A stretch of DNA of 64,000 bases, taken from a virus. Shown here in pieces: positions 30,050 through 50,172 of this stretch. Below the pieces are notes generated by a model that worked only from the letters and a program-made list of their open reading frames with translations, made no database searches and was not told where the DNA came from. The stretch is taken from positions 15,336-79,335 of the IMG/VR virus record IMGVR_UViG_3300032893_000025, one strand, 5' to 3'. Every line of letters begins with the position of its first letter. The stretch's first letter is position 1. The translations under genes were made by a program, and so were the position numbers.

Positions 30050-32887
30050 TTAGAGTTGATATAATTCTAGTTGTGTAATAGTAGCAGTTCCTGTTCCATC
30101 TCCATCTGTATATCTGATATAAATATTAGTTACACTAGCACCCGCAGTAAACTCTACTGTTCCTGGAGAATCTAAAATATAAGTTCTATTTGAACCATCT
30201 GTATAAGAAACAGCTATCCTAACATCAATTCCAGAATTTTCTATCCAATTACCTATTAATCTATAACTTACTCCAGGAGTCAAAATAGTTTTCCTTGTTC
30301 CACCACTTGTTGATGATATACTTATATCATGTATACCTGTTGGTGTACAATTTACTTCTGTCCATGTAGCATCTGTTAAATCATACCCAGATAATAAATT
30401 TGATCCTAAAGAAACACTTGAGTCTCTTACTTCACCTCTATATATTCCAATAACAGCATTACCTGGAGAACTTCCACTTGATGCTCTTGGAGTAACTTCT
30501 GGTGCAATATAATGAAGACTATCTGCTGCTACTAATAAATAACTACTGGCAGTTGCTCCATTAATTACTATACTTCCTGATCCATTTATATCATTCGCTC
30601 TCATCCATCTAAAAGAAGTTCCACTTTGTGGATCATTTTCTGTATCTGAATATGTATAACTTGCTGTTAACGTTTGCCCAACTTTTAATGTTCCAGTAGA
30701 TGTAACATTCGATGCAATTGGAACATTATTTGACCCTGCTCTACTTCTAATCCATACTTTACCTCTATATGGAAGAATTGTATCTACAGTTACTATATCT
30801 CCCATTACATTATAATAAGAATAACCAGGTGTCTTTATATTAGATAAATATACAGGATTACTTGACCAATTGTAATACCAATGATACATACTATCTATTG
30901 TAGATAATCCTGTTTCTGAATAATCTATTTCATCAGTATATTCATTATCACTTGCCCATGTAGTTGCTCTCCAAGTAGATATATTATTGTAATCATCATA
31001 AGTATCTAAATGAATAAAATAAGTAGATTCATAGTTATCATTTGGTAAAAGATAATGGTTTCTATCAAATATTGTCCCATCCAAAGTAGAACTTAATGAA
31101 TACATTGGAAATATAGAAGTTGTTCCTCCAAGATATGGAGAAATCCATATATTATCTTGTACCTTAAAATTTCTTCCTCTACCAGATATATAAAAAGCAA
31201 TTCTATTAGTATTTAATGCAATATTATTTTTAACTGTAATGGTATCATTAAGATGTAAAAATAATCCTGCTCTACCTCCAAGAATTAAATTATTTTCTAT
31301 ATATGTATTTTCTGTGTAATTATCTCCATATATCCCATAGATTGCTTGATATGTATCTGATGGTCTATTCTTACCATTACCATTTGTATAAACATTACGC
31401 ATGTCTACAAAATTATTTCTTATAAAATTCTTATTCCAGGTATCTCCATGCCAATAAAAATCTGAATTTGTAACATGATATATTCCTCCATAATCACTTA
31501 ATAACCAAGTTGCATCAGACACATAGTTACTATCAACATAAGTAGCATTACTTCTAGTAAATACTATTCCTGCTGATCCAGTCTTATCTATTCTATTCCT
31601 ATAAATAAATGTAGAATCACACCCCTCATCAAATGTTGTAAACTCACTAACAACAGCTATTCCCCTACCTGTTGCGGACATAGAATATTGTCCAGGATGT
31701 GTATTTATATTGTTGATATAATTATCATGGAATCTCATTACATTAGAACGTCCTGTTCTAATACCTTCACTCAAACAGTAAGATATATTAGAATGACTTA
31801 CCTCTGAATAACTTGACCCTGCTGTAAAATAAACTCCACTTAAACAGTAGGATATATTGGAATTTTTAACTATGATGTTAGAAGAAGCATTTACATCTAT
31901 CCCATTTGCATTAGATAGTTTTATATCTAGTCCATCAAAAGTTAAATAACTACTACCATTACTTACAGATATTATGTTTTGGGTGTTGGGAATTTCTACA
32001 ATTGAATCATTTAAAGTTGTAGTAGAATAAATATATATTATATGATTTGTTCTATCATAACTCCATTCTCCTTGGTGATCTAAACAGTTTCTATGATTAC
32101 ATATTAAATAATAATGATTTGCTGTATTAGGATAGAACCCATTTGCTAAATTTGGACTCAATAAAAATACTCCAGTTGCCCCAATATAATCTGATACATG
32201 AGTTCGGTTGGAAGTCCAATCTTCACATCTTACCCAAACATCTGCCCCATTCCAATAATCATCTGCTTGTAATCTAGTATTATCTGCTATAGAATCATAA
32301 GGAGCAGTATAAGATATTGTAGATGTATACCACAATGAATCATTATCTGGTTCTCTACCTACTATTTTATTTTTACTATTTATTTGTAAAAACCATAAAT
32401 CTGAGTATGTTGGAGCAGAATGAGAATAAATATTATTACCTTCATTTGTCCAACTTCCTGTAATTGTATAACTATTTTTAATAATAGGTTTGTTTCCACT
32501 TCCATAAGAACCTATTACTATTGGATTAGATATAGTTCCATGAATATTAGAAAAAGATAAATACCCATTAAATGTATCATTTTTTTTAAAAGCTATAGTA
32601 TCTCCTGCTATAAAAGTACCTTTTGCAATTTCTGTGTTAACCTTATCTACAGTCTGCCAAGCAGTTGCAGGAGTCTTACCATTAGCATTATCATTTCCAG
32701 TAGCTGATATATAATAATCTGCATGAGAATACCCAGTTTGTGATTCTCGATTATAAGTAAGATTTAAACTCTTCTTAACTCCTTTATGATAATAATATTG
32801 ACGTACTCCTTTTAATTGAGGAATAGTCTGAGCTTGTACTAATAATACTACAAATAAAGTTATTATAGATAACAAATATTTCTTCAT
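30050..32887 (-). CDS. Signal-peptide-bearing right-handed beta-helix (pectate-lyase-like/tail-spike-like) protein with Ig-like and C-terminal beta domain
   Basis: MKKYLLSIITLFVVLLVQA|Q signal; YYIS.TGND.ANG..PA.AW.T motif; Asn-rich beta-helix repeats; P.ASNV..TG...VG.TLT.SY.Y.D Ig-like domain. Confidence 0.75.
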   Translation of the reverse strand: MKKYLLSIITLFVVLLVQAQTIPQLKGVRQYYYHKGVKKSLNLTYNRESQTGYSHADYYISATGNDNANGKTPATAWQTVDKVNTEIAKGTFIAGDTIAFKKNDTFNGYLSFSNIHGTISNPIVIGSYGSGNKPIIKNSYTITGSWTNEGNNIYSHSAPTYSDLWFLQINSKNKIVGREPDNDSLWYTSTISYTAPYDSIADNTRLQADDYWNGADVWVRCEDWTSNRTHVSDYIGATGVFLLSPNLANGFYPNTANHYYLICNHRNCLDHQGEWSYDRTNHIIYIYSTTTLNDSIVEIPNTQNIISVSNGSSYLTFDGLDIKLSNANGIDVNASSNIIVKNSNISYCLSGVYFTAGSSYSEVSHSNISYCLSEGIRTGRSNVMRFHDNYINNINTHPGQYSMSATGRGIAVVSEFTTFDEGCDSTFIYRNRIDKTGSAGIVFTRSNATYVDSNYVSDATWLLSDYGGIYHVTNSDFYWHGDTWNKNFIRNNFVDMRNVYTNGNGKNRPSDTYQAIYGIYGDNYTENTYIENNLILGGRAGLFLHLNDTITVKNNIALNTNRIAFYISGRGRNFKVQDNIWISPYLGGTTSIFPMYSLSSTLDGTIFDRNHYLLPNDNYESTYFIHLDTYDDYNNISTWRATTWASDNEYTDEIDYSETGLSTIDSMYHWYYNWSSNPVYLSNIKTPGYSYYNVMGDIVTVDTILPYRGKVWIRSRAGSNNVPIASNVTSTGTLKVGQTLTASYTYSDTENDPQSGTSFRWMRANDINGSGSIVINGATASSYLLVAADSLHYIAPEVTPRASSGSSPGNAVIGIYRGEVRDSSVSLGSNLLSGYDLTDATWTEVNCTPTGIHDISISSTSGGTRKTILTPGVSYRLIGNWIENSGIDVRIAVSYTDGSNRTYILDSPGTVEFTAGASVTNIYIRYTDGDGTGTATITQLELYQL

Positions 32888-32888
32888 A

Positions 32889-33458
32889 TTATTTTTCCCT
32901 TCTAATATCTACTATTATCAAAGTAACTAATAATACAAAGAATACTATTAGATCTACCTCTAATTTATTCACTTTACTCTCTAACCTAGCTATATATCTT
33001 TTATTAATTTCAGATGATGCCATTAAAGATTGTAATTGATAGGAAGGTCTTAAACCCGATAAGTTATAAGTATATTTAACTCCAGTTGTATCTTTGTAAT
33101 ACCATCTAATTTCTCCATTCACTGTATCAACTAAATATTTAGCAGCACTGCTAGGAATATCTGTAGATAGTCCAAATGTAGCTGTGGATAAACTATCTGC
33201 AATTACTGCACCAAATGTATTAAGTCCCAACCACTGTAAATGATTTTTTCTAAGTTTCATTAATCTAAGAGTATCAGTTATAGTAACTGGTTTATCAAAA
33301 GAAAATTTTACTTGGTTTGTATGAAATTTTACTGTATCTACGTCAATAAACATTTTAAATGTATCTGTCCCAATAATCATTCTAAATGGGACTTTCGTAA
33401 TTTGTGAAAAACAAACTGTTGATATAAATAATCCTAATAATATTAAAAGTTTTTTCAT
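32889..33458 (-). CDS. Signal-peptide protein with C-terminal coiled coil and TM anchor
   Basis: MKKLLILLGLFISTVCFS|Q signal; C-terminal RYIARLESKVNKLE coil followed by LIVFFVLLVTLIIV. Confidence 0.65.
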   Translation of the reverse strand: MKKLLILLGLFISTVCFSQITKVPFRMIIGTDTFKMFIDVDTVKFHTNQVKFSFDKPVTITDTLRLMKLRKNHLQWLGLNTFGAVIADSLSTATFGLSTDIPSSAAKYLVDTVNGEIRWYYKDTTGVKYTYNLSGLRPSYQLQSLMASSEINKRYIARLESKVNKLEVDLIVFFVLLVTLIIVDIRREK

Positions 33459-33461
33459 TTA

Positions 33462-36400
33462 TTATGATATTGGTATTTCAAATAATGTTGTATAAGTTCC
33501 ACTTACTCTAAATTGAAAATAAAAACCATTAGCATCTGCATAAGTTCTCCAATCCCCATCTGTATCACTCCCCATAGTTTGTCTATGATAATGATATTGT
33601 CCTCTTAGTGTTTCTTCTGATCCTGATGCAAATAAACTATATATTGAAGAACTATTATTTTGTACAGATAATAATTTAGATCCTGCTGTAGATAAGGTGG
33701 TTGTTGTATTAAATAAATTGGCTATAGCATTTGCTCCATCTACAACCACTGGATTTATTGCTGAAACAATATTTCCTGATCTTTTTATAGACAAAAATCC
33801 AGATGTCAATAATCCATAATCTCCAGATTTAGAACCACTATATACTCCAGATAAAAATACTCCATAACCATCTTTATCAAAAGATACTTTTTCACTTCCT
33901 TGATTTCTCCAAGATGATAATAATGCTCCTGTTGTAGTTAAATTATTATGTGTATCTAATATACATGCAACAGCACTTGCTCCATTCGCAACTCTCGGAT
34001 TAAAACTAATTCTTTCTGTTGTTCCGGCACTATAAGAAAATGCTTTACCAGATATAGTTCCAGATGTAGTTGGATTATCTAAAATATTGATTAAATTTCC
34101 AGTAGCATCGCCTGTTCCTGATAATAATCTCTCAACTAATAAAACATCATTTCCATTATTATTTGAACCTAAAGAACCAGATTGTTTTATATCTGCCCCT
34201 ATTCCACGTATAGTAGATAAATTTAATCCTGTACCCGTTGATGTACTTGTTACAGATAAACATGTTCCTGTAGTTGTATTTACTGTAATACCTGTACCTT
34301 GAACATTTACCCCAGTACTATATAAATATCCATTTAAATTTAATCTATTTGTTCCATCTGGATCAGTAGTTCCGGTATAAAAATTAATTCCCGATTGCTT
34401 AGATGCATAAGGAGTATATTTATTAGTATTCCAATCTAATATATCATCTGTAGGTAATGCAGCAGTTATATCTGAAGTTAAAGCTAAAGTTCCTGTAGCT
34501 GTAGGTAACGTTAAAGTAGGTGTTCCTGCTATAGATGGAACAACTATTATAGCTGTACCAGATGTTGCTCCTGCTAATGATAATGATCCTGATGATGTTC
34601 CTGCTGTCCCTATAGTTAAAGTAGCAGATGGAGTTAAATTATTTAATCCTAATTTCCCATTAATAGTTAATATCTGAGTTGAAGTAGTAGTATCCATTAC
34701 TCCATAGAGCAAAGCTTTACTTCTTTGATCTGATTCATTTGCCCTAAGAATACTATCTATAATTAATTTTCTATTTCCTGTTTCATAATAACCTGCCGCA
34801 AATCCTATAAATATAGAGTTATCTACTGTTGTTCCATTATATCCTGTTATATTACCAAGAAATACATTACTAGCACCATCATGTAAACTTTTACCAGAAT
34901 AATTTCCTAATAATAAATTATCATCTCCACCTACATTAGCTTCTCCAGCCTTATATCCTATCATTACATTATCTAATGTATTGATAGTATTATATCCAGC
35001 ATTTTTACCTATAAAAAGACATTGAGTGTTATCTCCAGAAAATCCAGCTTGATCCCCTAATATTGTATTATTTGATCCTAATGAAATATTAGTACCAGCC
35101 ATATTACCAACAATGGTATTACCTGTAAAATCTGTATCTGAGTTTATAGTAGTGGCTTCTCCTAATAATAAATTCTCTATACCAGTATTAAATCTTAAAG
35201 ATGAAGATATTCCTCCAACTGTTAAATTTGTTACAGCAAATAAATTAGTAACATGTAAATCTCCATCATAGTTTAATCTAATTGTTGCATCTGGGTTAGA
35301 TGTCCCTAAATAAAATTTACCATCACTTGCAACTCCACCAGCTTCAGTCTTACTACTATAAGGTCTGTAGTAAAAATTAGGAGTTCCATCCCATTTAAAT
35401 ACATTATCTGTAGGAGTTACTCCTGACCCTGAATTTGGAACCCATGATCTAACTCCACCAGTTGTAGATGATAATATATAACCACTTACACTAGGATTCC
35501 CTAATCCTGATTCTTTAGAATTCCATGAAGATACGTCTCCCGCATCAATACCTGTAACAGTAGAATATGCACTAAAATCTGATTTTTTAGCATTAATAGT
35601 TCCATCTATAAATGCTGAGAAGGATAAAGGACTTCCTGAATTTATAACAGTATCTTGTATGTATAGAATTCCTAAATCTGAAAATATCTTTTGATTTCCA
35701 TTTTCAAAATTAACTATTCCATAAGTAGTAGTAATCTCTCCATTTATATTTAATACTTTTCCAAGTGTGTCCCCATCTATTAAAGGAAATGTAGAATATG
35801 CCGTATCTATAATAATTCTACTGGAATTTGTAGTATCTACCCCTACCCCTATTAAAAGATTATTATCTTTATATCTTATATAATTGCTATCAAAATCATC
35901 TGCTACTATATGCCCGGTTATATCTAACTCAGCAGTAGGATTAGTATGATTACTAATATAGTTGGAATAATATATACCACCTGTTGTGGTAGTCCAATGA
36001 TTTGTAGCTCCAGCTATCAATGCAGCTAGAGTAGATGTATTAGATAAAGAATCTGTAAATACTAAATTCCCAGCAGTTTCTATTATTGTGGATCCAGTAC
36101 CTATATTTAGAGTATTAGATATAGTTAAGTTTACGGATGTTAAAATATTTAAAGTTGGGTCATAAGTTAAATCTGCATCTGATCCTAAAGAAGAACCTCC
36201 AGTTGTATATACTAAAGATCCTGTTCCAGAAGGTATTACAAATTGTTTATATGTTCCATCATTAGATAGGAAATATGTACCATCTCCAGAGTTTAGTATA
36301 GAATCTAATAAAGTTTTATTAGTATGAGTATGAGTATTGGTGTAGGCAGTATTCCAATTAGTTATATTAGTACTCGTTATTGTATAAGCAGCACTAATTT

Positions 36401-37118
36401 GAAATATAGGATCTGTTTCTGATAATAGATACCCAGCATCAGCATGATTCCCCCACCCATAAGCAGTATTCCAATGATTATAATCATCTAACACTATTGC
36501 ACTTGCTACAGAAGAATTAAATACTGGATCAACTTCTGCAATTAAATACCCAACTAAACTATGATCTCCCCAACTAAAAGCAGTATTCCAATTAGTAATA
36601 TCTGATGATAATATAGTATTTAAGGCTGTTAAATCAGTATGAGTATGTGAATTTCCTATAGTAGTACCTATAGAAGCATTTGTATATGAATATGTATCTA
36701 ATAATGCCTGATTAGCAAAAGTATGTATATCACTGGTTAATGCTAAAGTTCCTGCTGCATTTGGGATAGTAATATTTCTTGTAGCTGTTAAACTAGTTGA
36801 TAGATTAGCATAAAAACTGCCACTTCTTACTCTAACTGTATCTATATAAGCATCGGCAGTTCTTAAGGATGTAGTATTAGTTTCTCCCGAGACTCTCAGT
36901 CTCTCACTACCTACAAATGAAGTAGTACCTAAAGAAACCTTATCAGTTATTGTTGTAGGATAAATTTGTCCTGATACTATTCTTGTCCAAATACTATCAG
37001 TTATGGTAGAAGAACTTCCACCTTCTTGAGTTATACTAACAGGATTAGGTAAGTTTCCTACATTTACTAATCCTTCCTTAAGTAAATACGGATCTATAGG
37101 GCCACCTACTGTTATCAT
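33462..37118 (-). CDS. Tail fibre protein
   Basis: 1218 aa, Thr/Gly/Ser-rich; HTH and WNTA(Y/F).WG.H...E.DP repeats; N...G..AG beta-roll repeats. Confidence 0.8.
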   Translation of the reverse strand: MITVGGPIDPYLLKEGLVNVGNLPNPVSITQEGGSSSTITDSIWTRIVSGQIYPTTITDKVSLGTTSFVGSERLRVSGETNTTSLRTADAYIDTVRVRSGSFYANLSTSLTATRNITIPNAAGTLALTSDIHTFANQALLDTYSYTNASIGTTIGNSHTHTDLTALNTILSSDITNWNTAFSWGDHSLVGYLIAEVDPVFNSSVASAIVLDDYNHWNTAYGWGNHADAGYLLSETDPIFQISAAYTITSTNITNWNTAYTNTHTHTNKTLLDSILNSGDGTYFLSNDGTYKQFVIPSGTGSLVYTTGGSSLGSDADLTYDPTLNILTSVNLTISNTLNIGTGSTIIETAGNLVFTDSLSNTSTLAALIAGATNHWTTTTGGIYYSNYISNHTNPTAELDITGHIVADDFDSNYIRYKDNNLLIGVGVDTTNSSRIIIDTAYSTFPLIDGDTLGKVLNINGEITTTYGIVNFENGNQKIFSDLGILYIQDTVINSGSPLSFSAFIDGTINAKKSDFSAYSTVTGIDAGDVSSWNSKESGLGNPSVSGYILSSTTGGVRSWVPNSGSGVTPTDNVFKWDGTPNFYYRPYSSKTEAGGVASDGKFYLGTSNPDATIRLNYDGDLHVTNLFAVTNLTVGGISSSLRFNTGIENLLLGEATTINSDTDFTGNTIVGNMAGTNISLGSNNTILGDQAGFSGDNTQCLFIGKNAGYNTINTLDNVMIGYKAGEANVGGDDNLLLGNYSGKSLHDGASNVFLGNITGYNGTTVDNSIFIGFAAGYYETGNRKLIIDSILRANESDQRSKALLYGVMDTTTSTQILTINGKLGLNNLTPSATLTIGTAGTSSGSLSLAGATSGTAIIVVPSIAGTPTLTLPTATGTLALTSDITAALPTDDILDWNTNKYTPYASKQSGINFYTGTTDPDGTNRLNLNGYLYSTGVNVQGTGITVNTTTGTCLSVTSTSTGTGLNLSTIRGIGADIKQSGSLGSNNNGNDVLLVERLLSGTGDATGNLINILDNPTTSGTISGKAFSYSAGTTERISFNPRVANGASAVACILDTHNNLTTTGALLSSWRNQGSEKVSFDKDGYGVFLSGVYSGSKSGDYGLLTSGFLSIKRSGNIVSAINPVVVDGANAIANLFNTTTTLSTAGSKLLSVQNNSSSIYSLFASGSEETLRGQYHYHRQTMGSDTDGDWRTYADANGFYFQFRVSGTYTTLFEIPIS

Positions 37119-37119
37119 A

Positions 37120-37302
37120 TTATTCGTTTATTATTATAATGCCTGTACTTATTAAATCTATATTTCCATCATTACTAAAAGTAGTTCCTACTTCTGTTAC
37201 ATCTCCTTGAATACTTATTGTATTTATACTATACTGACTTTGAGATATATTTTCAAGTATAACGGGATCTTCTAATTTATTACCATTTAATACAGTTATC
37301 AT
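37120..37302 (-). CDS. Small putative tail protein
   Basis: 60 aa; N-terminus (MITV..G...DP..L) resembles that of the adjacent tail fibre. Confidence 0.5.
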   Translation of the reverse strand: MITVLNGNKLEDPVILENISQSQYSINTISIQGDVTEVGTTFSNDGNIDLISTGIIIINE

Positions 37303-37853
37303 ATTATGGTATTATCGTAAAAATTCTGCAATTTAAAGTTTTCTATAACTCCAAGAATGTTATCTACTCTTGTTAATTGCCCTACTGTAGCGGCGGACTG
37401 AACTCCAAATAATAAAACATCAAAAACTATATATTTTTCAACATCTTTATTATATTTGAAATCATTATTAGCTATATCTATAGGAAGATTATAAATTATC
37501 TGATACTTATAATACTTAGTGTTATAATCCAATAATACATTTGAATTGACTGGATCACTCGCAGGTGATGTAGTATAAGTAATTATTATATTATAAACAT
37601 CATCTGCAAATGGTTGAGTTGCCCCAAATCCACAATCAGATGATGGTATTGTCCATGTTAAATCTGTATAGGCAGCAGGTTGGGATATAGCATCATCAAC
37701 TACTGTATATACTGTTACTTCCCCTCTTCTTTGTATAGTAATCTTAGAGTGAGTTACTCCTGTATTAGAAGAATCCGCCCATTGTGTATAGTCTGTAACT
37801 ACTAAGTTAAGACCATCATCACTCTGATTAAGTTGTACTTTAATTGTTGCCAT
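37299..37853 (-). CDS. Putative tail hub protein
   Basis: 184 aa, beta domain plus C-terminal helices; located after the auxiliary capsid gene and before the fibres, as in crAss-like phages. Confidence 0.5.
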   Translation of the reverse strand: MATIKVQLNQSDDGLNLVVTDYTQWADSSNTGVTHSKITIQRRGEVTVYTVVDDAISQPAAYTDLTWTIPSSDCGFGATQPFADDVYNIIITYTTSPASDPVNSNVLLDYNTKYYKYQIIYNLPIDIANNDFKYNKDVEKYIVFDVLLFGVQSAATVGQLTRVDNILGVIENFKLQNFYDNTII

Positions 37854-38337
37854 AGTTTATATTTTTCCCAGCATCTACTAATCTTGTACTATCAGATTTT
37901 ATAGTAAAATCTATATAATTTAATGTGTTAATTTGATGTAATATATCTTCTATTACCTTTTGATTATTTTTAAAATCTTTAAATAAAAGTAGTTCATTCT
38001 CTAAGTGAGATGTATAACTAACTTTAAAGTTTTTCATTTGATAGGTTAAATTCTTTGTATCTTTAGAAATATTAGAAACAGAATCATCTAACTTATTTAA
38101 TCTGTTAAAAAATGTTTCAGCCAATTTATCTACCTTATCTATAATTATAGAATCACTAGATGTAGATTTCTTAGCTAAACTTTCCGCTATTTTTGCTCTA
38201 GTTACTATATTAGAAATAAATAAAGTTGCTGGAATAATAATTGCACATACACCAATAACTCCTCCTATTTTGCTCCAAGCCTTAGGAGTAAATATCTTTT
38301 TAAAAAAAGAAAAATCTGGATTAAAATTAATTAACAT
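37840..38337 (-). CDS. Membrane-anchored coiled-coil protein
   Basis: One N-terminal TM helix (IGGVIGVCAIIIPATLFI) followed by a coiled coil. Confidence 0.6.
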   Translation of the reverse strand: MLINFNPDFSFFKKIFTPKAWSKIGGVIGVCAIIIPATLFISNIVTRAKIAESLAKKSTSSDSIIIDKVDKLAETFFNRLNKLDDSVSNISKDTKNLTYQMKNFKVSYTSHLENELLLFKDFKNNQKVIEDILHQINTLNYIDFTIKSDSTRLVDAGKNINYGNN

Positions 38338-38344
38338 AACACTG

Positions 38345-38376
38345 TAAATTTACTAAACTATATAATTAAAACCAAA
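38345..38376 (-). promoter_or_regulatory. Bacteroidota sigmaA-type promoter (variant -7)
   Basis: TTTG-N20-TAAATTTA upstream of 38337, just after a terminator. Confidence 0.5.
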
Positions 38377-38420
38377 TTTAATTTCTATGAATATTTATCA
38401 GTATTACTCATAGATAATAT

Positions 38421-38448
38421 AAAAGAAAGGGGATAGGAGACCTACCCC
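38421..38448 (-). terminator. Intrinsic terminator after the auxiliary capsid gene
   Basis: GGGG(A)TAGG-AGA-CCTACCCC hairpin with TTTCTTTT tail on the minus strand. Confidence 0.7.
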
Positions 38449-38470
38449 CAATCTTGGTATTATTTCAGGA

Positions 38471-40810: not shown

Positions 40811-40812
40811 AA

Positions 40813-41505: not shown

Positions 41506-42140
41506 TAGTTACTACTTTGGGTTTCTTGTATATTAAATACAACTTTTGATATATCTATAGCTTTATCTACTATTCTTCTATGTAAACTTTCTTGCAATTC
41601 ACAATTATTAATAGAACTTATATCTGTTCTTTTTTTAACATATATTAAAGAGATATTAGTAATTGTTGTATAATCATCTCCTAAAACTGTTAATTTATTA
41701 TCTTCTATATAACATTTAGGATTTTTAAATATCCTACTTGAATTAAATACAGAAGATAATATTTCTGTTGCTTTATCTCTTGATACTACAAAATTCTTTA
41801 ATGGTTGGGCAGATGATATAAATTGTGTAGGAATAAATCCTGTTGCTGACATTGCCGTTCTAGTTAAAGAAGAATAAGAGTCTATGTATAGCCAGTAATC
41901 TGCTGGTAAAGCCCTATAATAAACTTTATTGGATCCTGTGTAAGTTGCTGCTACAGAATCTGTAGTTACTATCTCTTCTAATAAGAGATAATTTTTTTCA
42001 TTATATAAATCTTTTATAATATAATCCTGAGATCTATTAAGTAACGCATACACCTGAGTATCTGTGAACCCAGGTGCTGCTCCTGAAGCAATTACATCTG
42101 CTCCAAGTCTAAATTCATATAACATCTCAGTATTAGTCAT
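41505..42140 (-). CDS. Tail ring protein paralog 1
   Basis: MTN.EM..EF..AAPGF; LN.SQ; YVK..CEL.ESLH..IVD.A. Confidence 0.75.
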   Translation of the reverse strand: MTNTEMLYEFRLGADVIASGAAPGFTDTQVYALLNRSQDYIIKDLYNEKNYLLLEEIVTTDSVAATYTGSNKVYYRALPADYWLYIDSYSSLTRTAMSATGFIPTQFISSAQPLKNFVVSRDKATEILSSVFNSSRIFKNPKCYIEDNKLTVLGDDYTTITNISLIYVKKRTDISSINNCELQESLHRRIVDKAIDISKVVFNIQETQSSN

Positions 42141-43114
42141 TATTCAGCTTCTACTTTTTTACTAGTTGATTTTCCTATAGGATTATATACTCCATTAGCC
42201 AAATCTATTCTTTCTAAAAGAATTAAATAAGTATCATCCTTATCTTTATTCTTTTCTGCTAAAGCTAAATAACTAATCATTTCTTCCATAGTATATTTAC
42301 TTCCACCAGGAAGATTATAACTATCTACCCCATTCTTTGTTATTGCACCAGCAGTTACTCCATTAAGTAAAAGAATCTTGTATTTCTTATCAGGATCATC
42401 TATAATGGCTAAAAATCCTTTTTTATCTTTAGATATTATTTCATCTATATCCTGAACAAGTCTATTACTTGTTATATTTTTAGGTACTTCTATAAAGTCT
42501 TTTTTGCTTAAATGATATAATCTTAAGAATTCTACCATTCTGTCAATATTACTTTGTAGTTTACCAAATTCAGTGTAACATTTAGTTAATACTTCAGCAG
42601 CAGTCTTTTTAGATGTATCTTCATATTCTCCATCTTTTAATGCCCAAACATAATGTTGTTTGTCTAATCTTTGTTCCCAGGATGGAGCTATATCATGCCA
42701 CATCTTTAGTATTTTATACTTTATCATATCCTCAGGAATGGATAAGTCTAACATATAACCATTTAATTTTATAGAAGCATCTACTTCAAATTTTACTCTG
42801 GTTAGATTACTTTTTCCTGTATTCCAAACACAGTTTGGGTCATTACTGTTAGGTGTTAAATCTATACCTATAACACTCTCAAAGAATTCTTTTTCTTCTG
42901 GTGATTCAAAAGGATTAAAATAATACCCTTTATCTGATATTGGTAAACATCTTTCAAACATAGCCCCATCATACATAAAACTGTGTATTGAATTTGAACT
43001 AGATTTAATAAGAGTTAAATCTTTTCCATCAATTGGCTTTAAAGCCACTTTCTTGTTTTTTAAAAATCCTTTTTTAATTCCTTCCTCAATTGTCCAAGTT
43101 TTCTTACTTTCCAT
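42140..43114 (-). CDS. Conserved crAss-like protein downstream of the major capsid gene
   Basis: 324 aa; LDLS.PED.IKYK.L and IAPSW motifs; synteny. Confidence 0.65.
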   Translation of the reverse strand: MESKKTWTIEEGIKKGFLKNKKVALKPIDGKDLTLIKSSSNSIHSFMYDGAMFERCLPISDKGYYFNPFESPEEKEFFESVIGIDLTPNSNDPNCVWNTGKSNLTRVKFEVDASIKLNGYMLDLSIPEDMIKYKILKMWHDIAPSWEQRLDKQHYVWALKDGEYEDTSKKTAAEVLTKCYTEFGKLQSNIDRMVEFLRLYHLSKKDFIEVPKNITSNRLVQDIDEIISKDKKGFLAIIDDPDKKYKILLLNGVTAGAITKNGVDSYNLPGGSKYTMEEMISYLALAEKNKDKDDTYLILLERIDLANGVYNPIGKSTSKKVEAE

Positions 43115-43142
43115 AGTTTACTTTAATTTAAATTTATAAAAT

Positions 43143-43174
43143 AAAGTAAAGGTGCATTTCTACACCTTTACTTT
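43143..43174 (-). terminator. Intrinsic terminator/hairpin after the major capsid gene
   Basis: Perfect 12-bp inverted repeat AAAGTAAAGGTG-N8-CACCTTTACTTT. Confidence 0.7.
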
Positions 43175-43184
43175 TTAGTTTTTA

Positions 43185-44693
43185 TTAATAACCAAGTGCT
43201 TTATAAGTAGATGGCATGTAACGTCCTGTACGTAAAGGATTTTTAATCCTGACAGAAGTTATACACATTTTACTTAATTGGTAAGCATCTTGCATATCAG
43301 CTACAGGATGTGGTACAGATCCTAGTCCGCCTGGGCTATAAGGATCACGGAATCCAGGTCTATAAGCCATGAATTCTTCCCAACCTTTAATACCTACTTT
43401 AGCAATATTAGGTTCTCCTTTATCTGAACCAAAATCCCAGATATTGTAAATGTAAGAACTGATATAACCACCATTTGGATTAGAAATCTTACCAGCGGTT
43501 ACTGGACTATCTAACATCTTATCAACCATCATTTCAATAGTAATACCATTGATCCAGTCAAATTTAGTTATTTGTCCTTCAGTTACATTAACTTTACCAT
43601 TAACAACTTGAACGTTATGGTCACTTCTTAACCAAGCATAAGTAGCCATTTTAGCGGCAACAGCTTTATGGAATTGATACATACCAAATTCTCCAGTTGT
43701 TACTAAGAAACGTCTATCACTTTCATCTAACTTGTTATAAGAGATACCCATTAAGAAATCTGTAAAGCCATCTAAGTTAAATACATTGTAAAAACCTAAG
43801 TTAGAACCAGCCATTTGGTCATAAAGACCATAACCAGCTTTAACAGGATTACCAGATTCACCAAAGATTTGAGTAGTACCATCAAGACCTACAGTATTTT
43901 TACCATAAAGAATAACTCTTGCCTGATCTCTCTTAGCTTGTTTGTAGAATTCCCATTCTAATTTATTAATCCATGCTTCCTGAATTTTACCTTTATCATC
44001 TTGGAATTTAAAAGCTAAAGGAATATTCTTACCAGCAGCAATTATAGAAGAAGGAATAGTCACACTTTTTCTAATATGAGTGATCCAGTTTTGTAGTTCA
44101 AACATACTTTCAAAATGTATATCACTACCACGCAATGACATATCTTCTTCAACAGGAGCATAAAGTGATCCATAAGGTACACCAGCTAGTAATTCTTCTA
44201 CAGGCATGTAAGATGTTGGGCTACTTCCGTAAACCTGAACTTTATACCTCCAATAAGAACCAACTTGTGTAGGATCTTCCATAATACGTACCTGATAATC
44301 TTCAGGTCTTAACCCTGCTATAACAGATGGAGCACTAAACCATTTTTCTGCAAAATACAGATAGAATGGTTGAAAGTTTTCCCCTACTTTAGCAGTAGTA
44401 GATGAACTTACTTCAGTTTCTGATAACCCATAGGTAGCTTTTACCAATGGAATATTTCTTTCAGATGTACCGCGTAAGTACCATTTATATACTGGTTGAT
44501 CTGTATAGATAGTAGGATACTTATCTACTACAGCAACGAGATTATCATCCCCGTTAACCATACTATATAAATTATCAATAGTTTGTGATAGAACTGCCGG
44601 CCCTTTAGTGTATCCTATATAGGCCAGATTGTTCCACTTTGTAAAACCAGCCCAGTATTTGGGATTGGTCACTTGAGTTACCGCAATTTTCAT
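43185..44693 (-). CDS. Major capsid protein (HK97 fold, crAss-type)
   Basis: 502 aa; W.G.T..NNL, NIPLVKA, GESGN...G.GL..Q and TGE.G..QFH motifs; follows the scaffold gene and precedes a terminator. Confidence 0.9.
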   Translation of the reverse strand: MKIAVTQVTNPKYWAGFTKWNNLAYIGYTKGPAVLSQTIDNLYSMVNGDDNLVAVVDKYPTIYTDQPVYKWYLRGTSERNIPLVKATYGLSETEVSSSTTAKVGENFQPFYLYFAEKWFSAPSVIAGLRPEDYQVRIMEDPTQVGSYWRYKVQVYGSSPTSYMPVEELLAGVPYGSLYAPVEEDMSLRGSDIHFESMFELQNWITHIRKSVTIPSSIIAAGKNIPLAFKFQDDKGKIQEAWINKLEWEFYKQAKRDQARVILYGKNTVGLDGTTQIFGESGNPVKAGYGLYDQMAGSNLGFYNVFNLDGFTDFLMGISYNKLDESDRRFLVTTGEFGMYQFHKAVAAKMATYAWLRSDHNVQVVNGKVNVTEGQITKFDWINGITIEMMVDKMLDSPVTAGKISNPNGGYISSYIYNIWDFGSDKGEPNIAKVGIKGWEEFMAYRPGFRDPYSPGGLGSVPHPVADMQDAYQLSKMCITSVRIKNPLRTGRYMPSTYKALGY

Positions 44694-44711
44694 ATTTATT
44701 TATAATTAAGC

Positions 44712-45884
44712 TTATCTTCTTGTATTAATTGTACCAAACAGACTGTCTAAAGTTCCCTTTCCTGATTCATCATCTTCTGTATCCATTACTGGATTACCAC
44801 CTTTCCTTGGTGTAGTTTTAAGGATATTTTCTAATTCTTCAGTTGCTTTAGTTTTAGCTTTTGCTAAAGGCTTATCAAACTTTCCATCTAATAATCCATT
44901 TTTAATAGCATAAGCAACCATAGTATCAAATTTAATAGGATCTTTTTGTCTTAAAGACCACATATTTCCTGAAAGTACATCTTTCTTTAAAGCATCTTTA
45001 GTTTGCTTATTAATCTTTACCCCAGGAATAGGTTCTTCAAGTTTATCAATAAATTCCGTGTATTTAGCTACAATTTGTTTCTTCTGTTCTTCCTTTACTT
45101 TAGCTTCTTCAACTTTAGCCTTTTCAGCCTGTTTAATTTGCTCTTTAGTAAATTCTTTAACATTTTTAAGAGATTGTTTGGATTCTTCAATATCTTCTCC
45201 AGATTTAACAATTCTCTCTACTTCTTTTTTAATCTTTTCTTCAGAGAAGTTTGTAGAGTTGTAAAGATCTTGGGCAATTATTTTCTTTCTTAAATCTTCT
45301 TTATCTTCTCCTAACAAATCTTCTTCTTTAATACTATCGTATTGAATTTTAGAAGCTATAAGAGAAGTTGCTGTTGCAGTATCTAAACCAAGATCTTTTA
45401 ATCTTACATATTCTTTAGCATCATCTTCAAGTTCTTCTATTACACTTTGTCTTGCAATAGTAGCCTCTTTAGCAAATACTTCTTTTACTGCTTCTGCTGT
45501 ACCTACTTCTTCAACTCTTTTTTCAAAATCTTCTTTACTAAATTCACTAAGGACTTCCTCCTCTACCAGACTTTGGAAAACAAGACTATGGACATTGGAA
45601 GAAGATTTAATATTTTTGGTAGAAGGAGGAGCCTTAGTTGTAACTTTAGGTTCTTTCTCTAACTCTTCTTCATCTTTTTCATCCTTTCCAGGATTATCTT
45701 GCTTTTCTTTTATTTCTTCAGTTTCTTCTGGAAACTCATCTTCAGTTCCAGTTTTATCTATCTTTTCTATTTCTCCAGACTCAACTCCTTGTTGAACCTG
45801 TTCTTCCATTAAAGAAAACATATCAGTTCCAATTTCTGAATTATTTTCCATTAAGTTTGTAAAATCAATTGTGTCTCTTTCCAT
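44712..45884 (-). CDS. Putative capsid scaffolding protein
   Basis: 390 aa, acidic disordered N-terminus plus coiled coils; immediately upstream of the MCP gene. Confidence 0.65.
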   Translation of the reverse strand: MERDTIDFTNLMENNSEIGTDMFSLMEEQVQQGVESGEIEKIDKTGTEDEFPEETEEIKEKQDNPGKDEKDEEELEKEPKVTTKAPPSTKNIKSSSNVHSLVFQSLVEEEVLSEFSKEDFEKRVEEVGTAEAVKEVFAKEATIARQSVIEELEDDAKEYVRLKDLGLDTATATSLIASKIQYDSIKEEDLLGEDKEDLRKKIIAQDLYNSTNFSEEKIKKEVERIVKSGEDIEESKQSLKNVKEFTKEQIKQAEKAKVEEAKVKEEQKKQIVAKYTEFIDKLEEPIPGVKINKQTKDALKKDVLSGNMWSLRQKDPIKFDTMVAYAIKNGLLDGKFDKPLAKAKTKATEELENILKTTPRKGGNPVMDTEDDESGKGTLDSLFGTINTRR

Positions 45885-45904
45885 ATTGTCTTGTTATTTG
45901 TTAG

Positions 45905-45935
45905 CAAATATATCTATAAGTTAAAAGTTTAACAA
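45905..45935 (-). promoter_or_regulatory. Bacteroidota sigmaA promoter for the scaffold/capsid operon
   Basis: TTG-N20-TATATTTG upstream of 45884. Confidence 0.65.
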
Positions 45936-45979
45936 CTTAATAAGTTATTATTTCAGTTTATTATAACTAAAAGTTTAAA

Positions 45980-46205
45980 CTATAATTTAGATAATAAAAT
46001 TATTACCTCTAGAAATGCAACTACTATTCTAAGTAAAGTATTGTTTAAAAATGGCATTTTATTCAATACCCAATCAAATACTGATGTTTTACCTTCTGAT
46101 TTATCACTAGATATATTAGTATAAAGTAAATCCTATATCTCTAAGTTGTTGTAATATATATATATTGTAATTCTATTATTTATTATATAAGATTTATAAA
46201 AACAT
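45980..46205 (-). pseudogene. Possible decayed small membrane-protein gene
   Basis: An ATG overlaps the upstream stop (TAATG) but is followed by stops; a downstream 50-codon frame DLLYTNISSDKSEGKTSVFDW...LRIVVAFLEVIILL has no start. Confidence 0.3.
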
Positions 46206-46453
46206 TAATTAGGTTTAGTTATACTATCATCCTTTAATCCTGATTTTAATTCTGCTAATTTATGTAAATATTTAGGGGTAAATATAGCTAGTAGTATCAT
46301 AAAAGAATAAAATATAAAATCCCCAGAAATAGGATTTTTACTATATAACCAAAACAAGGTAAGTATAAAATAAAATATAAGTAATAAAAAAGATTGTAAT
46401 CGTGTTGAACTCTTTACACCTTCTGATTCTTCAAAGAACCCTATTTTTTTCAT
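46205..46453 (-). CDS. Holin-like two-TM protein (paralog of 29771..30037)
   Basis: GFFEE..G.KSSTR followed by two TM helices and a charged tail. Confidence 0.62.
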   Translation of the reverse strand: MKKIGFFEESEGVKSSTRLQSFLLLIFYFILTLFWLYSKNPISGDFIFYSFMILLAIFTPKYLHKLAELKSGLKDDSITKPN

Positions 46454-46479
46454 AATATTAATTATTTAAGTTAAACATC

Positions 46480-48582
46480 TTATTGTTCAGTTCGTACCAG
46501 TATCAACCATTCATAAGGTGCAATCGTAATTGGATAGGTTGGCGTTGTGCCATCCAATTTAATATAATCATTATGTGGCATATCACTCAATTTTACAATC
46601 TTATTATTTCTTGTAAAATTTACAAGTGGATAAACGTAATTGGTTTTACTTTTTGTAGAATTCACCCATAACGAAGGAGTTATTATTTGTTCATTTGTTC
46701 TATGCCAATTATAAGTTGTCTGGTCTGTAACTGTCCAGAAATGCAAATTTTGTGCTCTCATTGTTTCTGTATTGTGCGACATATAAAAAATACTGTCATT
46801 TTTTGCAGGGGCCTGCCCAAATGGTAAGTAATAACGATTATTGTTAAAAATATTACTTCCGCGCACTGCTCCTAAATCATAAGCATATACTGGATTATCA
46901 ACATATTGTAAAATAAAATCATTATATTCAACATCATTATTCCCCCCACTTAAGGGAGTTTGATTTCCATTAATCCATAATCCAACATTTTTATCAGAGC
47001 CCACCCCTGTTGTTATAAAAGTATTATTTTTAATAATATGCGAATCCCCTTCAATGGTTGCCGCAAAATGTGAATTTGTTGAATAATTATATTGTGCATC
47101 AATAAATGAAGAACCCTCATCGCAATAAATACCATACTTATAAATTGCAATAGTAGGCATTCTGTCAATTATATTATTTTTGATCTGGCAATAGTTAAAA
47201 CTATAAGGATTCTTGTGGTAAACATTATTATAAGAATAATTGCAATAAAATGTCCTTATTCCCCCACAATCTATCATATTTGTAGCATAATTCCATACAT
47301 AATTATGATGAATATTAACTGCATTGGTTGTTAAAAATTCAATGCCGGCATATCCTGTATTTTTAACTATATTGTAGGATAATTCTATAAGATAACAACG
47401 AAGCATATAAATACCTTGTCCAATCATACCCATCATTGCATCGTAAGTAATATCATAACGCCCCCAACCTATAATAGAATCACAACGATCTATATAATTA
47501 TTCATAATCAATGCATTATGAGATGTCCTCAAGTAAATAGCACGATTATTACTATCTATAATTGAATCATTTTTTATGACAATATTTTGGCATGAATCTA
47601 ATAAAAATCCATGCCTACCAGAATTGGATATGGTTAAATTATTAAATGAAATTTGAGAACAGTTGTATGCATCTATAGTATTATCAGATGCTCCGGCAAA
47701 ATTTATATTATTAAAAGCAATGTTATTGCAATTAACCAATTTAATACCATGTTTATAATAACTTACGGAAATGTTACTCGGTGAACCAGATGAATAAATA
47801 TAAATAGTTTTTGCAATTGAATCATAAGCCCATTCATTTGCTGTTGTAATGCAATTTTTATGATTTTGAATAAAATAAAGAGTCCCATTAGTCGCTCCAA
47901 ACGCACCATAATATCCATGTCCGGGAGTTAATCCTGCATAAATTGTTCCATCAAAATTGTGATAAGAATTAGTATCATTGGCCCAAAAATTAAAAGTTTT
48001 ATTACTATAAGTTGTACATCTGATTACCTTAATATACCATGTAAATGGTGCTGTTACTAATTCACAACCATTCCAGTAATTATCGGCTCTGGCACTCGTA
48101 TCATTTGCAATTAATGAATATACTGTTCCACCTGTTGCAGATTTATAATTAATTTTTGGGTATCTGGCTAAGATTCCTCGCGTTGAGCCAAAAAATACAG
48201 TGGTTATTTCTGGTGGAAAATGACTATCTTGAACATGCCAAATATTCCCAGCATTTGTCCATCCTATAATTGTTTTAAATAAATTAACAACGGGATTTGC
48301 ACCAATTCCATAGGCCCCAATCGAAATATTATTCTTTGAATAAAAACTTATGGTATCCTGAAAAACACTGCCCCTTTCCAACCCAATACTTTGATTAGAT
48401 TGAACTGTAGTTATTGCCTTATTTATTGTTTGAAAAGGAAGACTTTTTGTTCCAGGATTATTATCACTTCCATTATTTGAGACATAATAATTAAAAATTT
48501 CCCTATTTTTTAACGAAACGTGAAAAGTCTGAGACATTAAATCCCCGCATATAGATAATAATAAAAAAAATATAATTTTCAT
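46480..48582 (-). CDS. Signal-peptide-bearing right-handed beta-helix protein (paralog of 30050..32887)
   Basis: MKIIFFLLLSICGDLMS|Q; YYVSNNGSDNNPG...PFQT; shares AD(D/N)YWNG, NH(K/R)NC and EW(A/S)YD...IYIYS motifs with the 30050 protein. Confidence 0.75.
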   Translation of the reverse strand: MKIIFFLLLSICGDLMSQTFHVSLKNREIFNYYVSNNGSDNNPGTKSLPFQTINKAITTVQSNQSIGLERGSVFQDTISFYSKNNISIGAYGIGANPVVNLFKTIIGWTNAGNIWHVQDSHFPPEITTVFFGSTRGILARYPKINYKSATGGTVYSLIANDTSARADNYWNGCELVTAPFTWYIKVIRCTTYSNKTFNFWANDTNSYHNFDGTIYAGLTPGHGYYGAFGATNGTLYFIQNHKNCITTANEWAYDSIAKTIYIYSSGSPSNISVSYYKHGIKLVNCNNIAFNNINFAGASDNTIDAYNCSQISFNNLTISNSGRHGFLLDSCQNIVIKNDSIIDSNNRAIYLRTSHNALIMNNYIDRCDSIIGWGRYDITYDAMMGMIGQGIYMLRCYLIELSYNIVKNTGYAGIEFLTTNAVNIHHNYVWNYATNMIDCGGIRTFYCNYSYNNVYHKNPYSFNYCQIKNNIIDRMPTIAIYKYGIYCDEGSSFIDAQYNYSTNSHFAATIEGDSHIIKNNTFITTGVGSDKNVGLWINGNQTPLSGGNNDVEYNDFILQYVDNPVYAYDLGAVRGSNIFNNNRYYLPFGQAPAKNDSIFYMSHNTETMRAQNLHFWTVTDQTTYNWHRTNEQIITPSLWVNSTKSKTNYVYPLVNFTRNNKIVKLSDMPHNDYIKLDGTTPTYPITIAPYEWLILVRTEQ

Positions 48583-48583
48583 A

Positions 48584-50170
48584 TTAAAACGGATTTCTAT
48601 GTAAAGCAGTTTCTAAAGCATTTACGCGTAAATAAAATTTATTTATGTGATAATTTTGTAAAGCTGTTCTCCAAATAGCAAAAAAAGCATCTCTGTTTAA
48701 AGTAAAATTTTCAGCAGTATTGGCATTATCATTAGCTAAAATATAAACTGGATACGTAGGAGTTGGAGAAACATAAGGAGCCGTCACAGAAGTAGTATAG
48801 TACCCTCCATTTGAAGCAATAATAGTTCCACCTGTTGATGATGTATTATATCTTGAAATAGAAAAATAACCCGGAGAAATTTGAGTTCCTTGTAATGCCA
48901 CAGTTGTAAAAGGACACGCAAGCCAATTCGTAGTGTATCTCCCTGTACCCATTTGAAAATATTTAGTTCCTTTTGTCCCCATATCGACTTGCTCACCAGC
49001 ATTTACATTTACAGTCTGGCAATAATAGAAAAGTCCTCCGACTGTATCTGTCGAATTAAATGTAAAATGTGTATTTCCATATCCTGAACTTGTTCCTACC
49101 ATTCCTAATGCGCTATGGGTAATAGAACCATTAAAAGTTATTCTATAAGCTTCATCCAGATCTCGTGGATCTTTCGCATTCCATTTATCTGAAGATGCAG
49201 TACCGCCAATAATTAAATACATTGCTGCAATTTTAGTATAAAGCGTATCTAGTTTTACTCCTACAAAAAAATTATTGACGGCTGTCCATATTTCTGCTCC
49301 CGTTATTTGCTGAGCTGTACTTGGATAATAAACAGTTGCATCATTAGGAATTCCCGCAGCAGTTAAATATGCAGTAGCATCAGGATCATTGTTCGATATT
49401 TGCACATAAGAACTTGAAGTCTGATAACCAGGCGAAATTCCTGTTAAAGCTGTAGGAGTAACATTAAATTTTATAAATTTATTAACATCTGCTATAGTTG
49501 GTATATATAAATTAGTGGTAGCCCCAGTTATGGCAGTATAACTACCCCCTGATGTTGATGATTCAGTCCATGAATAAGTAGGAGTTCCAATTACATCTCC
49601 ATCATTATCAGAATAAATATAATGGCCTCTTAGTGTATCGCCATAATTATTATTTCCTGTAATTTTTACCCCCGAAGCAACTGGTGCAGTATTTTCAGTT
49701 GTAAGGCGTTGTTGAATAATCCGATAGTTAAAAAATCTCCCATCATACGAGAAAACAAAAATATTTTCCATATTAAGAGTATTATCGAAATTAATTATGT
49801 CATAATTAACAAAACCAGACAACGATAAATAATGCTCTCCATCACCAATAAATCTAATTATAGCACCATTGCCAATATGCTTACCAACAGTATCTAATCT
49901 AACAATTGAATCTTTATTAACTATAACTGAGCCATAATTTGTTATTAAATTCGAAAATGTTATAGTATCTAAAAATTGCTTGGTTATACTTGAAACATTT
50001 CCACCATTTAAAAACAATAAACTATCATTATGATTTAAAACTCTTCTTACTTCTCGTAAATTAGCTGTACTTCCTGGATTAGCAACATTTGGATTCAATG
50101 TTTGCTGTTGTGAATTATTTATTCCATATAAAATAAATAATCCTAATAATAATAATAATAATTTTTTCAT
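48584..50170 (-). CDS. Signal-peptide-bearing multi-domain adhesin-like protein (beta-sandwich + Ig-like + LamG/lectin-like)
   Basis: Start at MKKLLLLLLGLFILYG (50170); APVASGV.ITG...GDTL Ig-like domain; DPDA.AYL.AAG...K.....K..A.Y..GG C-terminal domain. Confidence 0.7.
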   Translation of the reverse strand: MKKLLLLLLGLFILYGINNSQQQTLNPNVANPGSTANLREVRRVLNHNDSLLFLNGGNVSSITKQFLDTITFSNLITNYGSVIVNKDSIVRLDTVGKHIGNGAIIRFIGDGEHYLSLSGFVNYDIINFDNTLNMENIFVFSYDGRFFNYRIIQQRLTTENTAPVASGVKITGNNNYGDTLRGHYIYSDNDGDVIGTPTYSWTESSTSGGSYTAITGATTNLYIPTIADVNKFIKFNVTPTALTGISPGYQTSSSYVQISNNDPDATAYLTAAGIPNDATVYYPSTAQQITGAEIWTAVNNFFVGVKLDTLYTKIAAMYLIIGGTASSDKWNAKDPRDLDEAYRITFNGSITHSALGMVGTSSGYGNTHFTFNSTDTVGGLFYYCQTVNVNAGEQVDMGTKGTKYFQMGTGRYTTNWLACPFTTVALQGTQISPGYFSISRYNTSSTGGTIIASNGGYYTTSVTAPYVSPTPTYPVYILANDNANTAENFTLNRDAFFAIWRTALQNYHINKFYLRVNALETALHRNPF

Positions 50171-50172
50171 AT

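Follow-up and report, generated by a model that had tools for sequence, protein, structure and literature searches.

Predicted Sec-exported beta-helix, Ig-like and membrane-anchored proteins encoded in the late operon of a divergent crAss-like phage

Introduction

Phage depolymerases and receptor-binding proteins are usually regarded as parts of the virus particle, and phage-encoded exported proteins and free depolymerases are already known. Here we analyze a 64,000-nucleotide stretch of the virus record IMGVR_UViG_3300032893_000025 (positions 15,336 to 79,335 of that record; this whole stretch is hereafter "the window", and all coordinates are counted from its first letter), in which four genes for depolymerase-like or fibre-like proteins encode N-termini resembling Sec signal peptides. 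The proteins are named here by their lengths, 945, 189, 700 and 528 amino acids (aa).

Several coliphage proteins with signals, namely T5 Llp, Cor, T4 Sp, P1 Sim and T1 gp11, act in the envelope of the infected cell, and for a number of them the gene lies next to a receptor-binding or lysis gene. Three of them, Llp, Cor and gp11, carry canonical lipoboxes and are true lipoproteins. T1 gp11, a unimolecular spanin, has a signal at one end and a membrane helix at the other, an arrangement also seen in the 189-aa protein of the window. Unlike the window proteins, to which they show no sequence similarity, the coliphage exclusion and lysis proteins are small and contain no glycan-enzyme domains.

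The tailspike depolymerases gp22 and gp23 of crAss001 belong, like the beta-helix proteins of the window, to the beta-helix class of glycan-enzyme-like folds (PMC10172136), and the spike genes occupy the same neighbourhood as the window genes, after the portal and head-fibre genes and beside lysis genes. However, the crAss001 spikes begin with a cytoplasmic docking peptide and have no signal, gp22 docking in the tail hub through its residues 1-26 (PMC10172136), whereas the window proteins begin with a signal and match no phage tail family, and the 700-aa protein lacks a docking region. A tailspike-like enzyme with a signal is known from a bacterium: WceF of Pantoea stewartii is a tailspike-like beta-helix glycanase of exopolysaccharide (EPS) with a cleavable signal, thought to cut the cell's own EPS during or after its passage through the periplasm (PMC7949094). 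Compared by description, WceF resembles the beta-helix proteins of the window in being a tailspike-like enzyme exported by means of a cleavable signal, but it is the product of a bacterial gene in an EPS synthesis cluster, has a Tat signal, and is a trimer of solved structure. Finally, prophages of Porphyromonas gingivalis encode secreted Q-rule proteins, which the authors read as phage use of host secretion (PMC10367356). As in the window, these proteins are phage-encoded, the host belongs to the Bacteroidota and the signals are of the signal peptidase I (SPase I) type, exposing Gln (PMC10367356). The P. gingivalis case differs in that it concerns five genes of unassigned function in temperate, siphovirus-type prophages, whereas the window phage is crAss-like and encodes large proteins resembling glycan enzymes or fibres in a late operon. 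In the literature on crAss-like phages we found no paper linking Crassvirales with signal peptides.

Signal-like N-termini of four window proteins

The sequence-only reading had pointed to four open reading frames (ORFs) that begin with Met-Lys or Met-Lys-Lys and continue with a hydrophobic core, after which a small residue precedes Gln. We recovered all four on the minus strand, with unchanged coordinates. Up to the predicted cleavage site, the N-termini read MKKYLLSIITLFVVLLVQA in the 945-aa protein (30050-32887), MKKLLILLGLFISTVCFS in the 189-aa protein (32889-33458) and MKIIFFLLLSICGDLMS in the 700-aa protein (46480-48582), each followed by Gln. Read from the ATG at 50170, the 528-aa protein (48584-50170) begins with MKKLLLLLLGLFILYGINNS followed by three Gln residues; an alternative start at 50188 would extend it to 534 aa.

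Signal-like N-termini were called throughout with a simple in-house script for n-, h- and c-regions, a heuristic that looks for a basic n-region, an uncharged hydrophobic h-region of at least 8 residues near the N-terminus, and small residues at positions -1 and -3. The script flags 5 of the 36 minus-strand ORFs of at least 100 aa, namely the four described above and the N-terminal membrane anchor encoded at 28150-28728, compared with a mean of 0.29 in composition-matched residue shuffles. Signal-like N-termini with Gln at +1 were observed three times, against 0.013 in such shuffles. In the other 15 kb of the phage record the same script finds no signal-like N-terminus. Small residues at -1 and -3 are present in the 945-aa, 189-aa and 700-aa proteins. 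The 528-aa protein has the expected n- and h-regions and Asn at -3, so that its exact cleavage site is uncertain.

In all four proteins Gln comes directly after Ser or Ala, and the same is true of P0003 and P0004, two relatives of the 700-aa protein, and of P0104, a relative of the 528-aa protein. Gln at +1 (the Q-rule) is specific to SPase I substrates of Bacteroidetes (PMC5837995, PMC10653852). Moreover, signals are retained in diverged relatives, at 31-45% identity. Taken together with the secreted cellular family to which the beta-helix pair is related (see below), the Q-rule signals and their conservation lend good support to the earlier suggestion that these proteins are exported to the periplasm, and predicted Sec export with SPase I cleavage of the four proteins is the best-supported step of the scenario developed here. 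From these predictions we infer actual export, cleavage and periplasmic location, as well as the substrate and what the phage gains. Interpreting the N-termini as signal-arrest-release sequences was also considered and rejected, because their cores are rich in Leu, Ile, Phe and Val instead of Gly and Ala.

Two of the signals contain a cysteine at the end of the h-region: Cys16 of the 189-aa protein is preceded by S-T-V and Cys12 of the 700-aa protein by L-S-I. With Val and Ile, respectively, at -1, both would be non-canonical lipoboxes. Among the relatives, a Cys at the matching position of the signal is present in P0002 and P0004 and absent in P0003. The start codons of the same two genes merit comment. 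The copy of the 189-aa ORF in the clustered protein database (P0041, 163 aa) starts at Met27 and is therefore without the signal. Bearing on this call, the first ATG of the ORF comes immediately after the upstream stop, and relatives retain the signal. If both starts were used, an exported form and a cytoplasmic, tail-anchored form would be produced. In the 700-aa ORF, an in-frame Met16 lies two residues before the predicted cleavage site, and a start there would yield a signal-less cytoplasmic copy.

Beta-helix proteins related to secreted enzymes of Bacteroidota

The 945-aa protein is composed of a signal (VQA-Q, the hyphen marking the predicted cleavage site here and below), a linker of ~40 aa, a right-handed beta-helix, an Ig-like domain at about residues 704-809 and a C-terminal beta-rich domain. 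In the 700-aa protein, the signal (LMS-Q) leads directly into a right-handed beta-helix with glycosidase-like matches. Both contain the Pfam domain PF13229 (40.6 bits, E = 2.6e-10 in the 945-aa protein; 45.1 bits, E = 1.1e-11 in the 700-aa protein; gathering cut-off 25.9), and they are paralogues of each other, with 26% identity over ~620 aa (E = 1.5e-23). Sequence matches of the beta-helix proteins in the PDB include three solved glycosidases of this fold, the GH120 xylosidase 3vst, the GH136 lacto-N-biosidase 6kqs and BT_1002.

When the four signal-bearing proteins were compared by tblastn with 50,697 phage records, almost no matches were obtained. The named wider relatives of both beta-helix proteins are cellular proteins of Bacteroidota (Spirosoma, Paludibacter, Prolixibacteraceae, Cyclobacterium), many of which carry PF18962, a C-terminal sorting domain of the type IX secretion system (T9SS). 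In these cellular relatives the signal peptide is followed at once by the same helix cap as in the phage beta-helix proteins. A signal-like N-terminus was found in 33 of the 39 relatives of the 700-aa protein. The closest of them, P0002-P0004 (31-42% identity, 669-718 aa), retain the signal; like the phage protein they carry no sorting domain, and their C-termini coincide with its own. None of the four window proteins has a T9SS C-terminal sorting domain (PF18962 or TIGR04183) at E-values up to 0.01 in Pfam and up to 0.1 in NCBIfam.

The resemblance to T9SS cargo of Bacteroidota that combines PF13229 with PF18962 extends over both ends of the catalytic body. In this cargo and in the phage pair alike, the signal is followed by a YYVS..G.D.N.G cap and the beta-helix, and the catalytic body terminates in the same "PY.SLIL" motif. 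Unlike the cargo, the phage pair lacks the type IX sorting domain and is encoded in a late phage operon; furthermore, the +1 residue is Gln in the phage pair, whereas most cellular relatives have Thr or Asn. The simplest reading of these sequence comparisons is that phages took up a secreted cellular enzyme family, kept its Sec signal and dropped its type IX address.

Only ~14 residues separate the signal of the 700-aa protein from the start of the beta-helix and its cap, which leaves no room for a docking domain. The two beta-helix proteins contain 12 and 7 cysteines, compared with 3 in the 1218-aa tail fibre encoded in the window, which is weak evidence of export.

The 189-aa and 528-aa proteins and their relatives

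The 189-aa protein comprises a signal (CFS-Q), a disordered linker, a small conserved beta module, and a long coiled-coil helix that runs into a C-terminal transmembrane (TM) anchor with a basic tail. Its AlphaFold model (pLDDT 83.5) consists of the signal helix, the disordered linker, a small beta domain and a 50-residue helix. Structure searches with this model using Foldseek and VIA-align yielded nothing meaningful (the intramolecular chaperone 3gw6 at E ~1 only, and otherwise generic long helices), and an Atlas search gave no usable match.

Using a full HMMER search, we collected 62 relatives of the 189-aa protein, 96-1343 aa in length. The matched module spans ~110 residues and is C-terminal in all of them except for a few short sequences (96-175 aa), which are probably fragments. 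A signal-like N-terminus is present in 44 of 61 relatives, with Gln at +1 in 35 of 61. A C-terminal TM helix with a basic tail is found in 36 of 61, while the rest end in a coiled coil. The middle parts of the relatives resemble tail fibres, and one relative (P0070) carries a beta-helix cap. As judged from these sequences, the 189-aa protein belongs to a metagenomic family in which a signal and a fibre-like body are combined with the conserved module, a coiled coil and a membrane anchor at the C-terminus. Pattern scans of IMG/VR and of GTDB genomes retrieved no member of the family. One metagenome context was found, contig L011, where a fibre ORF is followed by a small membrane protein, a 906-aa signal-bearing fibre with the 189-aa module and a signal-bearing concanavalin-like protein. 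The fibre ORFs of this contig share repeats with the 1218-aa fibre of the window.

The 528-aa protein starts with a signal (NNS-QQQ, site uncertain) and a conserved mature N-terminal peptide, followed by an Ig-like domain of the AIR9/ZirU type (matching PF23197 and a ZirU-type domain) and a phage-typical C-terminal domain that is possibly concanavalin A (ConA)-like. The 945-aa protein has this Ig-like domain in common with it (34% identity, E = 4e-10). P0104, which is 43% identical to the 528-aa protein, has a signal ending in A-Q and a mature N-terminal peptide that hardly differs. P0105-P0108, another four relatives, have only the C-terminal domain in common with the 528-aa protein; they start as ordinary cytoplasmic phage fibres and are signal-less. 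In a language-model search the C-terminal domain fell among viral clusters, the nearest named lead being a concanavalin-like family. The AlphaFold model of the protein has a pLDDT of 36, so that "lectin-like" is to be taken as a lead only. Thus, of the beta-helix, Ig-like and lectin-like domains proposed in the sequence-only reading, the beta-helix is borne out in two proteins by PF13229 and the Ig-like domain by PF23197, with an additional copy in the 945-aa protein, while the lectin-like assignment stays a lead.

Phage identity and genomic context

The source record, a 79-kb virus contig of IMG/VR, has an estimated completeness of 82%. The GC content of the sequence is low (~29%), and every gene of interest lies on the minus strand. 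The major capsid protein (43185-44693) matches 118 records of crAss-like phages, with Cellulophaga phage phi14:2 as the best match at 32% identity. The portal, large terminase and muzzle proteins have PHROG matches. Their genes follow the usual crAss order, together with an ORF of 4442 aa that was counted as the giant virion RNA polymerase. On these sequence grounds the window phage is a divergent member of Crassvirales, and its putative host is some member of the Bacteroidota.

The four start codons are located 0-2 nucleotides past the stop of the preceding gene, and no Bacteroidota-type promoter motif was found directly before any of the four genes; the genes are therefore part of a late operon rather than self-standing inserts. 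In the structural half of the window a single TTTG-N-TAnnTTTG promoter-like motif occurs, at 29728-29758 (minus strand), between the gene for an 88-aa protein and the genes for a 68-aa protein, a 95-aa protein and the endolysin. Across the whole window, the motif is not more frequent than expected by chance (5 versus 2.8). The lysis genes may thus have a late promoter of their own at this position.

One signal-bearing pair (30050-33458) is flanked by the tail fibre gene and the lysis cassette. The gene immediately upstream of that for the 189-aa protein encodes the 1218-aa tail fibre (33462-37118, minus strand), a presumed virion fibre that has no signal and matches the tail-fibre family phrog_9729 (E = 1e-12). 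Directly after the 945-aa gene, the lysis cassette begins with the holin-like 88-aa protein (29771-30037, minus strand), which has two TM helices and a charged C-terminal tail. The cassette also includes the endolysin (28725-29204, minus strand; phrog_315, E = 4e-46) and the 192-aa protein with the N-terminal membrane anchor mentioned above (28150-28728, minus strand), which shows no similarity to crAss001 gp27 or phi14:2 gp087. No ORF for a lipoprotein resembling an outer-membrane spanin (o-spanin) was found in 27000-30100. A second membrane-anchored protein besides the 192-aa one, of 165 aa (37840-38337, minus strand), has an N-terminal anchor and a helical body and is encoded among the tail genes upstream of the fibre gene.

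The other pair is part of the block 46205-51657. Upstream of the 528-aa gene lies directly the gene for a signal-less 156-aa protein (50173-50643, minus strand) with an N-terminus of the tail- or head-fibre type, which matches 12 PHROG tail-fibre families (best E = 3e-10). Both this protein and the 1218-aa fibre match tail-fibre PHROGs, whereas none of the four signal-bearing proteins matches a PHROG tail family. A docking domain common to the 156-aa and 528-aa proteins was considered and rejected, as BLASTP finds no similarity between them. Directly after the 700-aa gene, an 82-aa protein (46205-46453, minus strand) has two TM helices and the same layout as the 88-aa protein; the two show no similarity by BLASTP. 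A comparable gene for an 83-aa membrane protein follows a beta-helix gene in the crAss-like contig L006, as the 88-aa gene does in the window. All three of these small two-helix membrane proteins encoded after beta-helix genes (29771-30037 and 46205-46453, both minus strand, and 11956-12207 on the plus strand of L006) have Ser-Ser-(Lys/Thr)-Arg before the first helix. The block further holds genes for a ClpP-like protease (51148-51657) and a ferritin-like protein (50645-51151).

The portal gene of phi14:2, like that of the closest portal relative, L012, is immediately followed by the scaffold and capsid genes. Since neither has the block 46205-51657 between portal and scaffold, the block is an accessory insertion. 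In crAss001 the slot between portal and scaffold is taken by the head fibre, the tailspikes gp22-26 and lysis genes, and none of gp22-26 has a signal. The sequence-only reading had placed the four genes inside the virion gene block. This holds only with a qualification, as one pair belongs to a block absent from L012 and phi14:2, and the other stands between the fibre gene and the lysis cassette.

Signals recur in at least three other phage-like contigs, including L011 described above. In the crAss-like contig L008, a signal-bearing 294-aa protein and a signal-bearing beta-helix protein are encoded right after the portal gene. L007 encodes two signal-bearing proteins in a row, one of them with a beta-helix, and in L011 a signal-bearing fibre is accompanied by a signal-bearing ConA-like protein. 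L008 also encodes, at 14599-19045 (plus strand), a protein exceeding 1482 aa that has a signal ending in Ser-Gln and an SGNH/GDSL esterase domain; gp024 of Cellulophaga phage phi13:1 is a virion-associated protein of the SGNH/GDSL type without a signal.

Possible roles of the signal-bearing proteins

The reading that we favour, with a probability of about 0.5, is that the four are late-made, Sec-exported and putatively glycan-targeting periplasmic proteins that are not parts of the virion and that act, or are released, at lysis. In this scenario, the four proteins would be made late from the operon of virion genes and carried over the inner membrane by the host Sec system, and SPase I would cut them, exposing the N-terminal Gln. 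The glycosidase-like beta-helix pair, having no type IX domain, would wait in the periplasm; the 528-aa protein with its Ig-like and possibly lectin-like domains would be soluble in the same compartment, and the C-terminal helix of the 189-aa protein would tether it to the inner membrane on the periplasmic side. Since they have neither a type IX domain nor a clear lipid anchor, the soluble proteins would be expected to remain periplasmic up to lysis. The four would then act on envelope glycans of the lysing cell (capsule, EPS, O-antigen or other surface glycans). Once set free in soluble form, these enzymes and binders would loosen the matrix surrounding the burst and eliminate or block receptors on debris, which would keep progeny from being trapped. 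Late co-expression with virion genes and the position beside lysis genes suggest that the proteins function during or after lysis. Of the three roles proposed earlier, degradation of capsule or EPS at release fits the placement in the late operon, destruction or masking of receptors fits equally well, and attachment to virions at lysis is the least favoured.

Several observations weigh against the periplasmic, non-virion reading. In L006, the beta-helix relative at the position of the 945-aa protein, after a fibre gene and before that of the small membrane protein, has no signal, so the signal is not needed for the role of that protein. A minority of the relatives of the 189-aa protein are signal-less and resemble plain fibres, and the occurrence of both the 189-aa module and the C-terminal domain of the 528-aa protein in signal-less fibres is, at the sequence level, the pattern expected of receptor-binding parts of virions. 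In the 528-aa protein, conservation is much higher at the mature N-terminus than elsewhere, as would be expected of a docking peptide. The cysteines in two of the signals could make those proteins lipoproteins instead of soluble ones. Finally, the signal calls all come from a home-made heuristic.

An alternative is that the proteins fold in the periplasm and bind finished particles only at lysis, serving as real tailspikes or receptor-binding proteins. The genes are indeed located where crAss001 keeps its head fibre and tailspikes, and next to a tail fibre gene; their products have domains of the receptor-binding type (beta-helix, Ig-like and the phage-typical C-terminal domain); the 528-aa protein and P0104 agree very closely in the mature N-terminus, and the fibre-type 156-aa protein encoded directly upstream, which has no signal, could be an adaptor. 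We nevertheless consider such arming of virions improbable, because the 700-aa protein lacks a docking region, matches to tail families are absent from all four and we know of no precedent for it in tailed phages. The lack of BLASTP similarity between the 156-aa and 528-aa proteins, the absence of any signal-bearing protein from the virion proteins that mass spectrometry has verified in phi14:2 and phi13:1, and the dilution at lysis, which would hamper assembly, point in the same direction, and the 189-aa protein would remain in the membrane. Another possibility is that the exported proteins modify, cover or remove the receptor from inside the cell, leading to superinfection exclusion as with T5 Llp, Cor, T4 Sp and P1 Sim. 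Exported proteins encoded beside receptor-binding genes are the known pattern of Llp and Cor, the window proteins have predicted glycan-binding or glycan-cutting domains, and the 189-aa protein is predicted to be anchored in the inner membrane facing the periplasm. This explanation is unlikely: exclusion is most useful early, whereas the genes are coupled to late structural genes and have no promoter of their own; enzymes of 700-945 aa would be out of line with the small size of the known exclusion proteins; and with neither a type IX domain nor a clear lipid anchor there is no evident route to the cell surface.

For the 189-aa protein alone, a spanin-like function in lysis can be envisaged, with the C-terminal helix in the inner membrane and the N-terminus reaching towards the outer membrane in place of the missing outer-membrane spanin. 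The N-terminal signal with its Cys, the C-terminal TM helix and the membrane-proximal coiled coil all suit such a function, as do the location of the gene two genes upstream of the holin-like gene and endolysin and the apparent lack of an o-spanin-like lipoprotein in the lysis region. On balance we doubt it, given that the lipobox is non-canonical (Val at -1) and most relatives are of the SPase I type with Gln at +1, that relatives reach 1343 aa with fibre-like or beta-helix bodies, that ~40% of them have no membrane helix, and that some are ordinary signal-less fibres. The signals might also be leftovers of recent host-gene capture, in which case export would bring no adapted benefit, or the signals would be on the way to being lost as the proteins turn into ordinary spikes. 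A mainly cellular beta-helix family, the absence of the block 46205-51657 from the closest relatives, and the signal-less versions of the same domain in L003-L005, L006 and L009 are what this would predict. Yet signals persist in phage-side relatives at only 31-43% identity, the signal has outlasted the type IX domain, not just captured domains but also phage-typical ones bear signals, and the four genes occupy ~7 kb of a compact late operon, all of which makes a leftover origin rather implausible. We give similarly little credence to two bolder versions, namely an assembly in two compartments, in which receptor-binding and depolymerase proteins folded in the periplasm, some of them tethered to the inner membrane by a C-terminal helix, are loaded at lysis onto virions built in the cytoplasm, and a tethered family representing a new periplasm-spanning device for lysis or exclusion.

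Implications

As variants of known themes, signal-bearing depolymerase-like and fibre-like proteins in the spike slot of a crAss-like phage, and the family combining a signal, a fibre and an anchor, look new. A lytic crAss-like phage devotes ~7 kb of its late operon to such proteins, which appear to be addressed to the secretion system of the host, a habit that recurs in further phage contigs from the environment and in a sizeable protein family without a name. If these proteins are free or membrane-held tools directed at envelope glycans, host-range prediction based on genomes would miscount their genes as virion spikes, and such genes would be a source of soluble glycan-cutting enzymes. For the phages themselves, they would represent an extra step in lysis and release in capsule-rich Bacteroidota.

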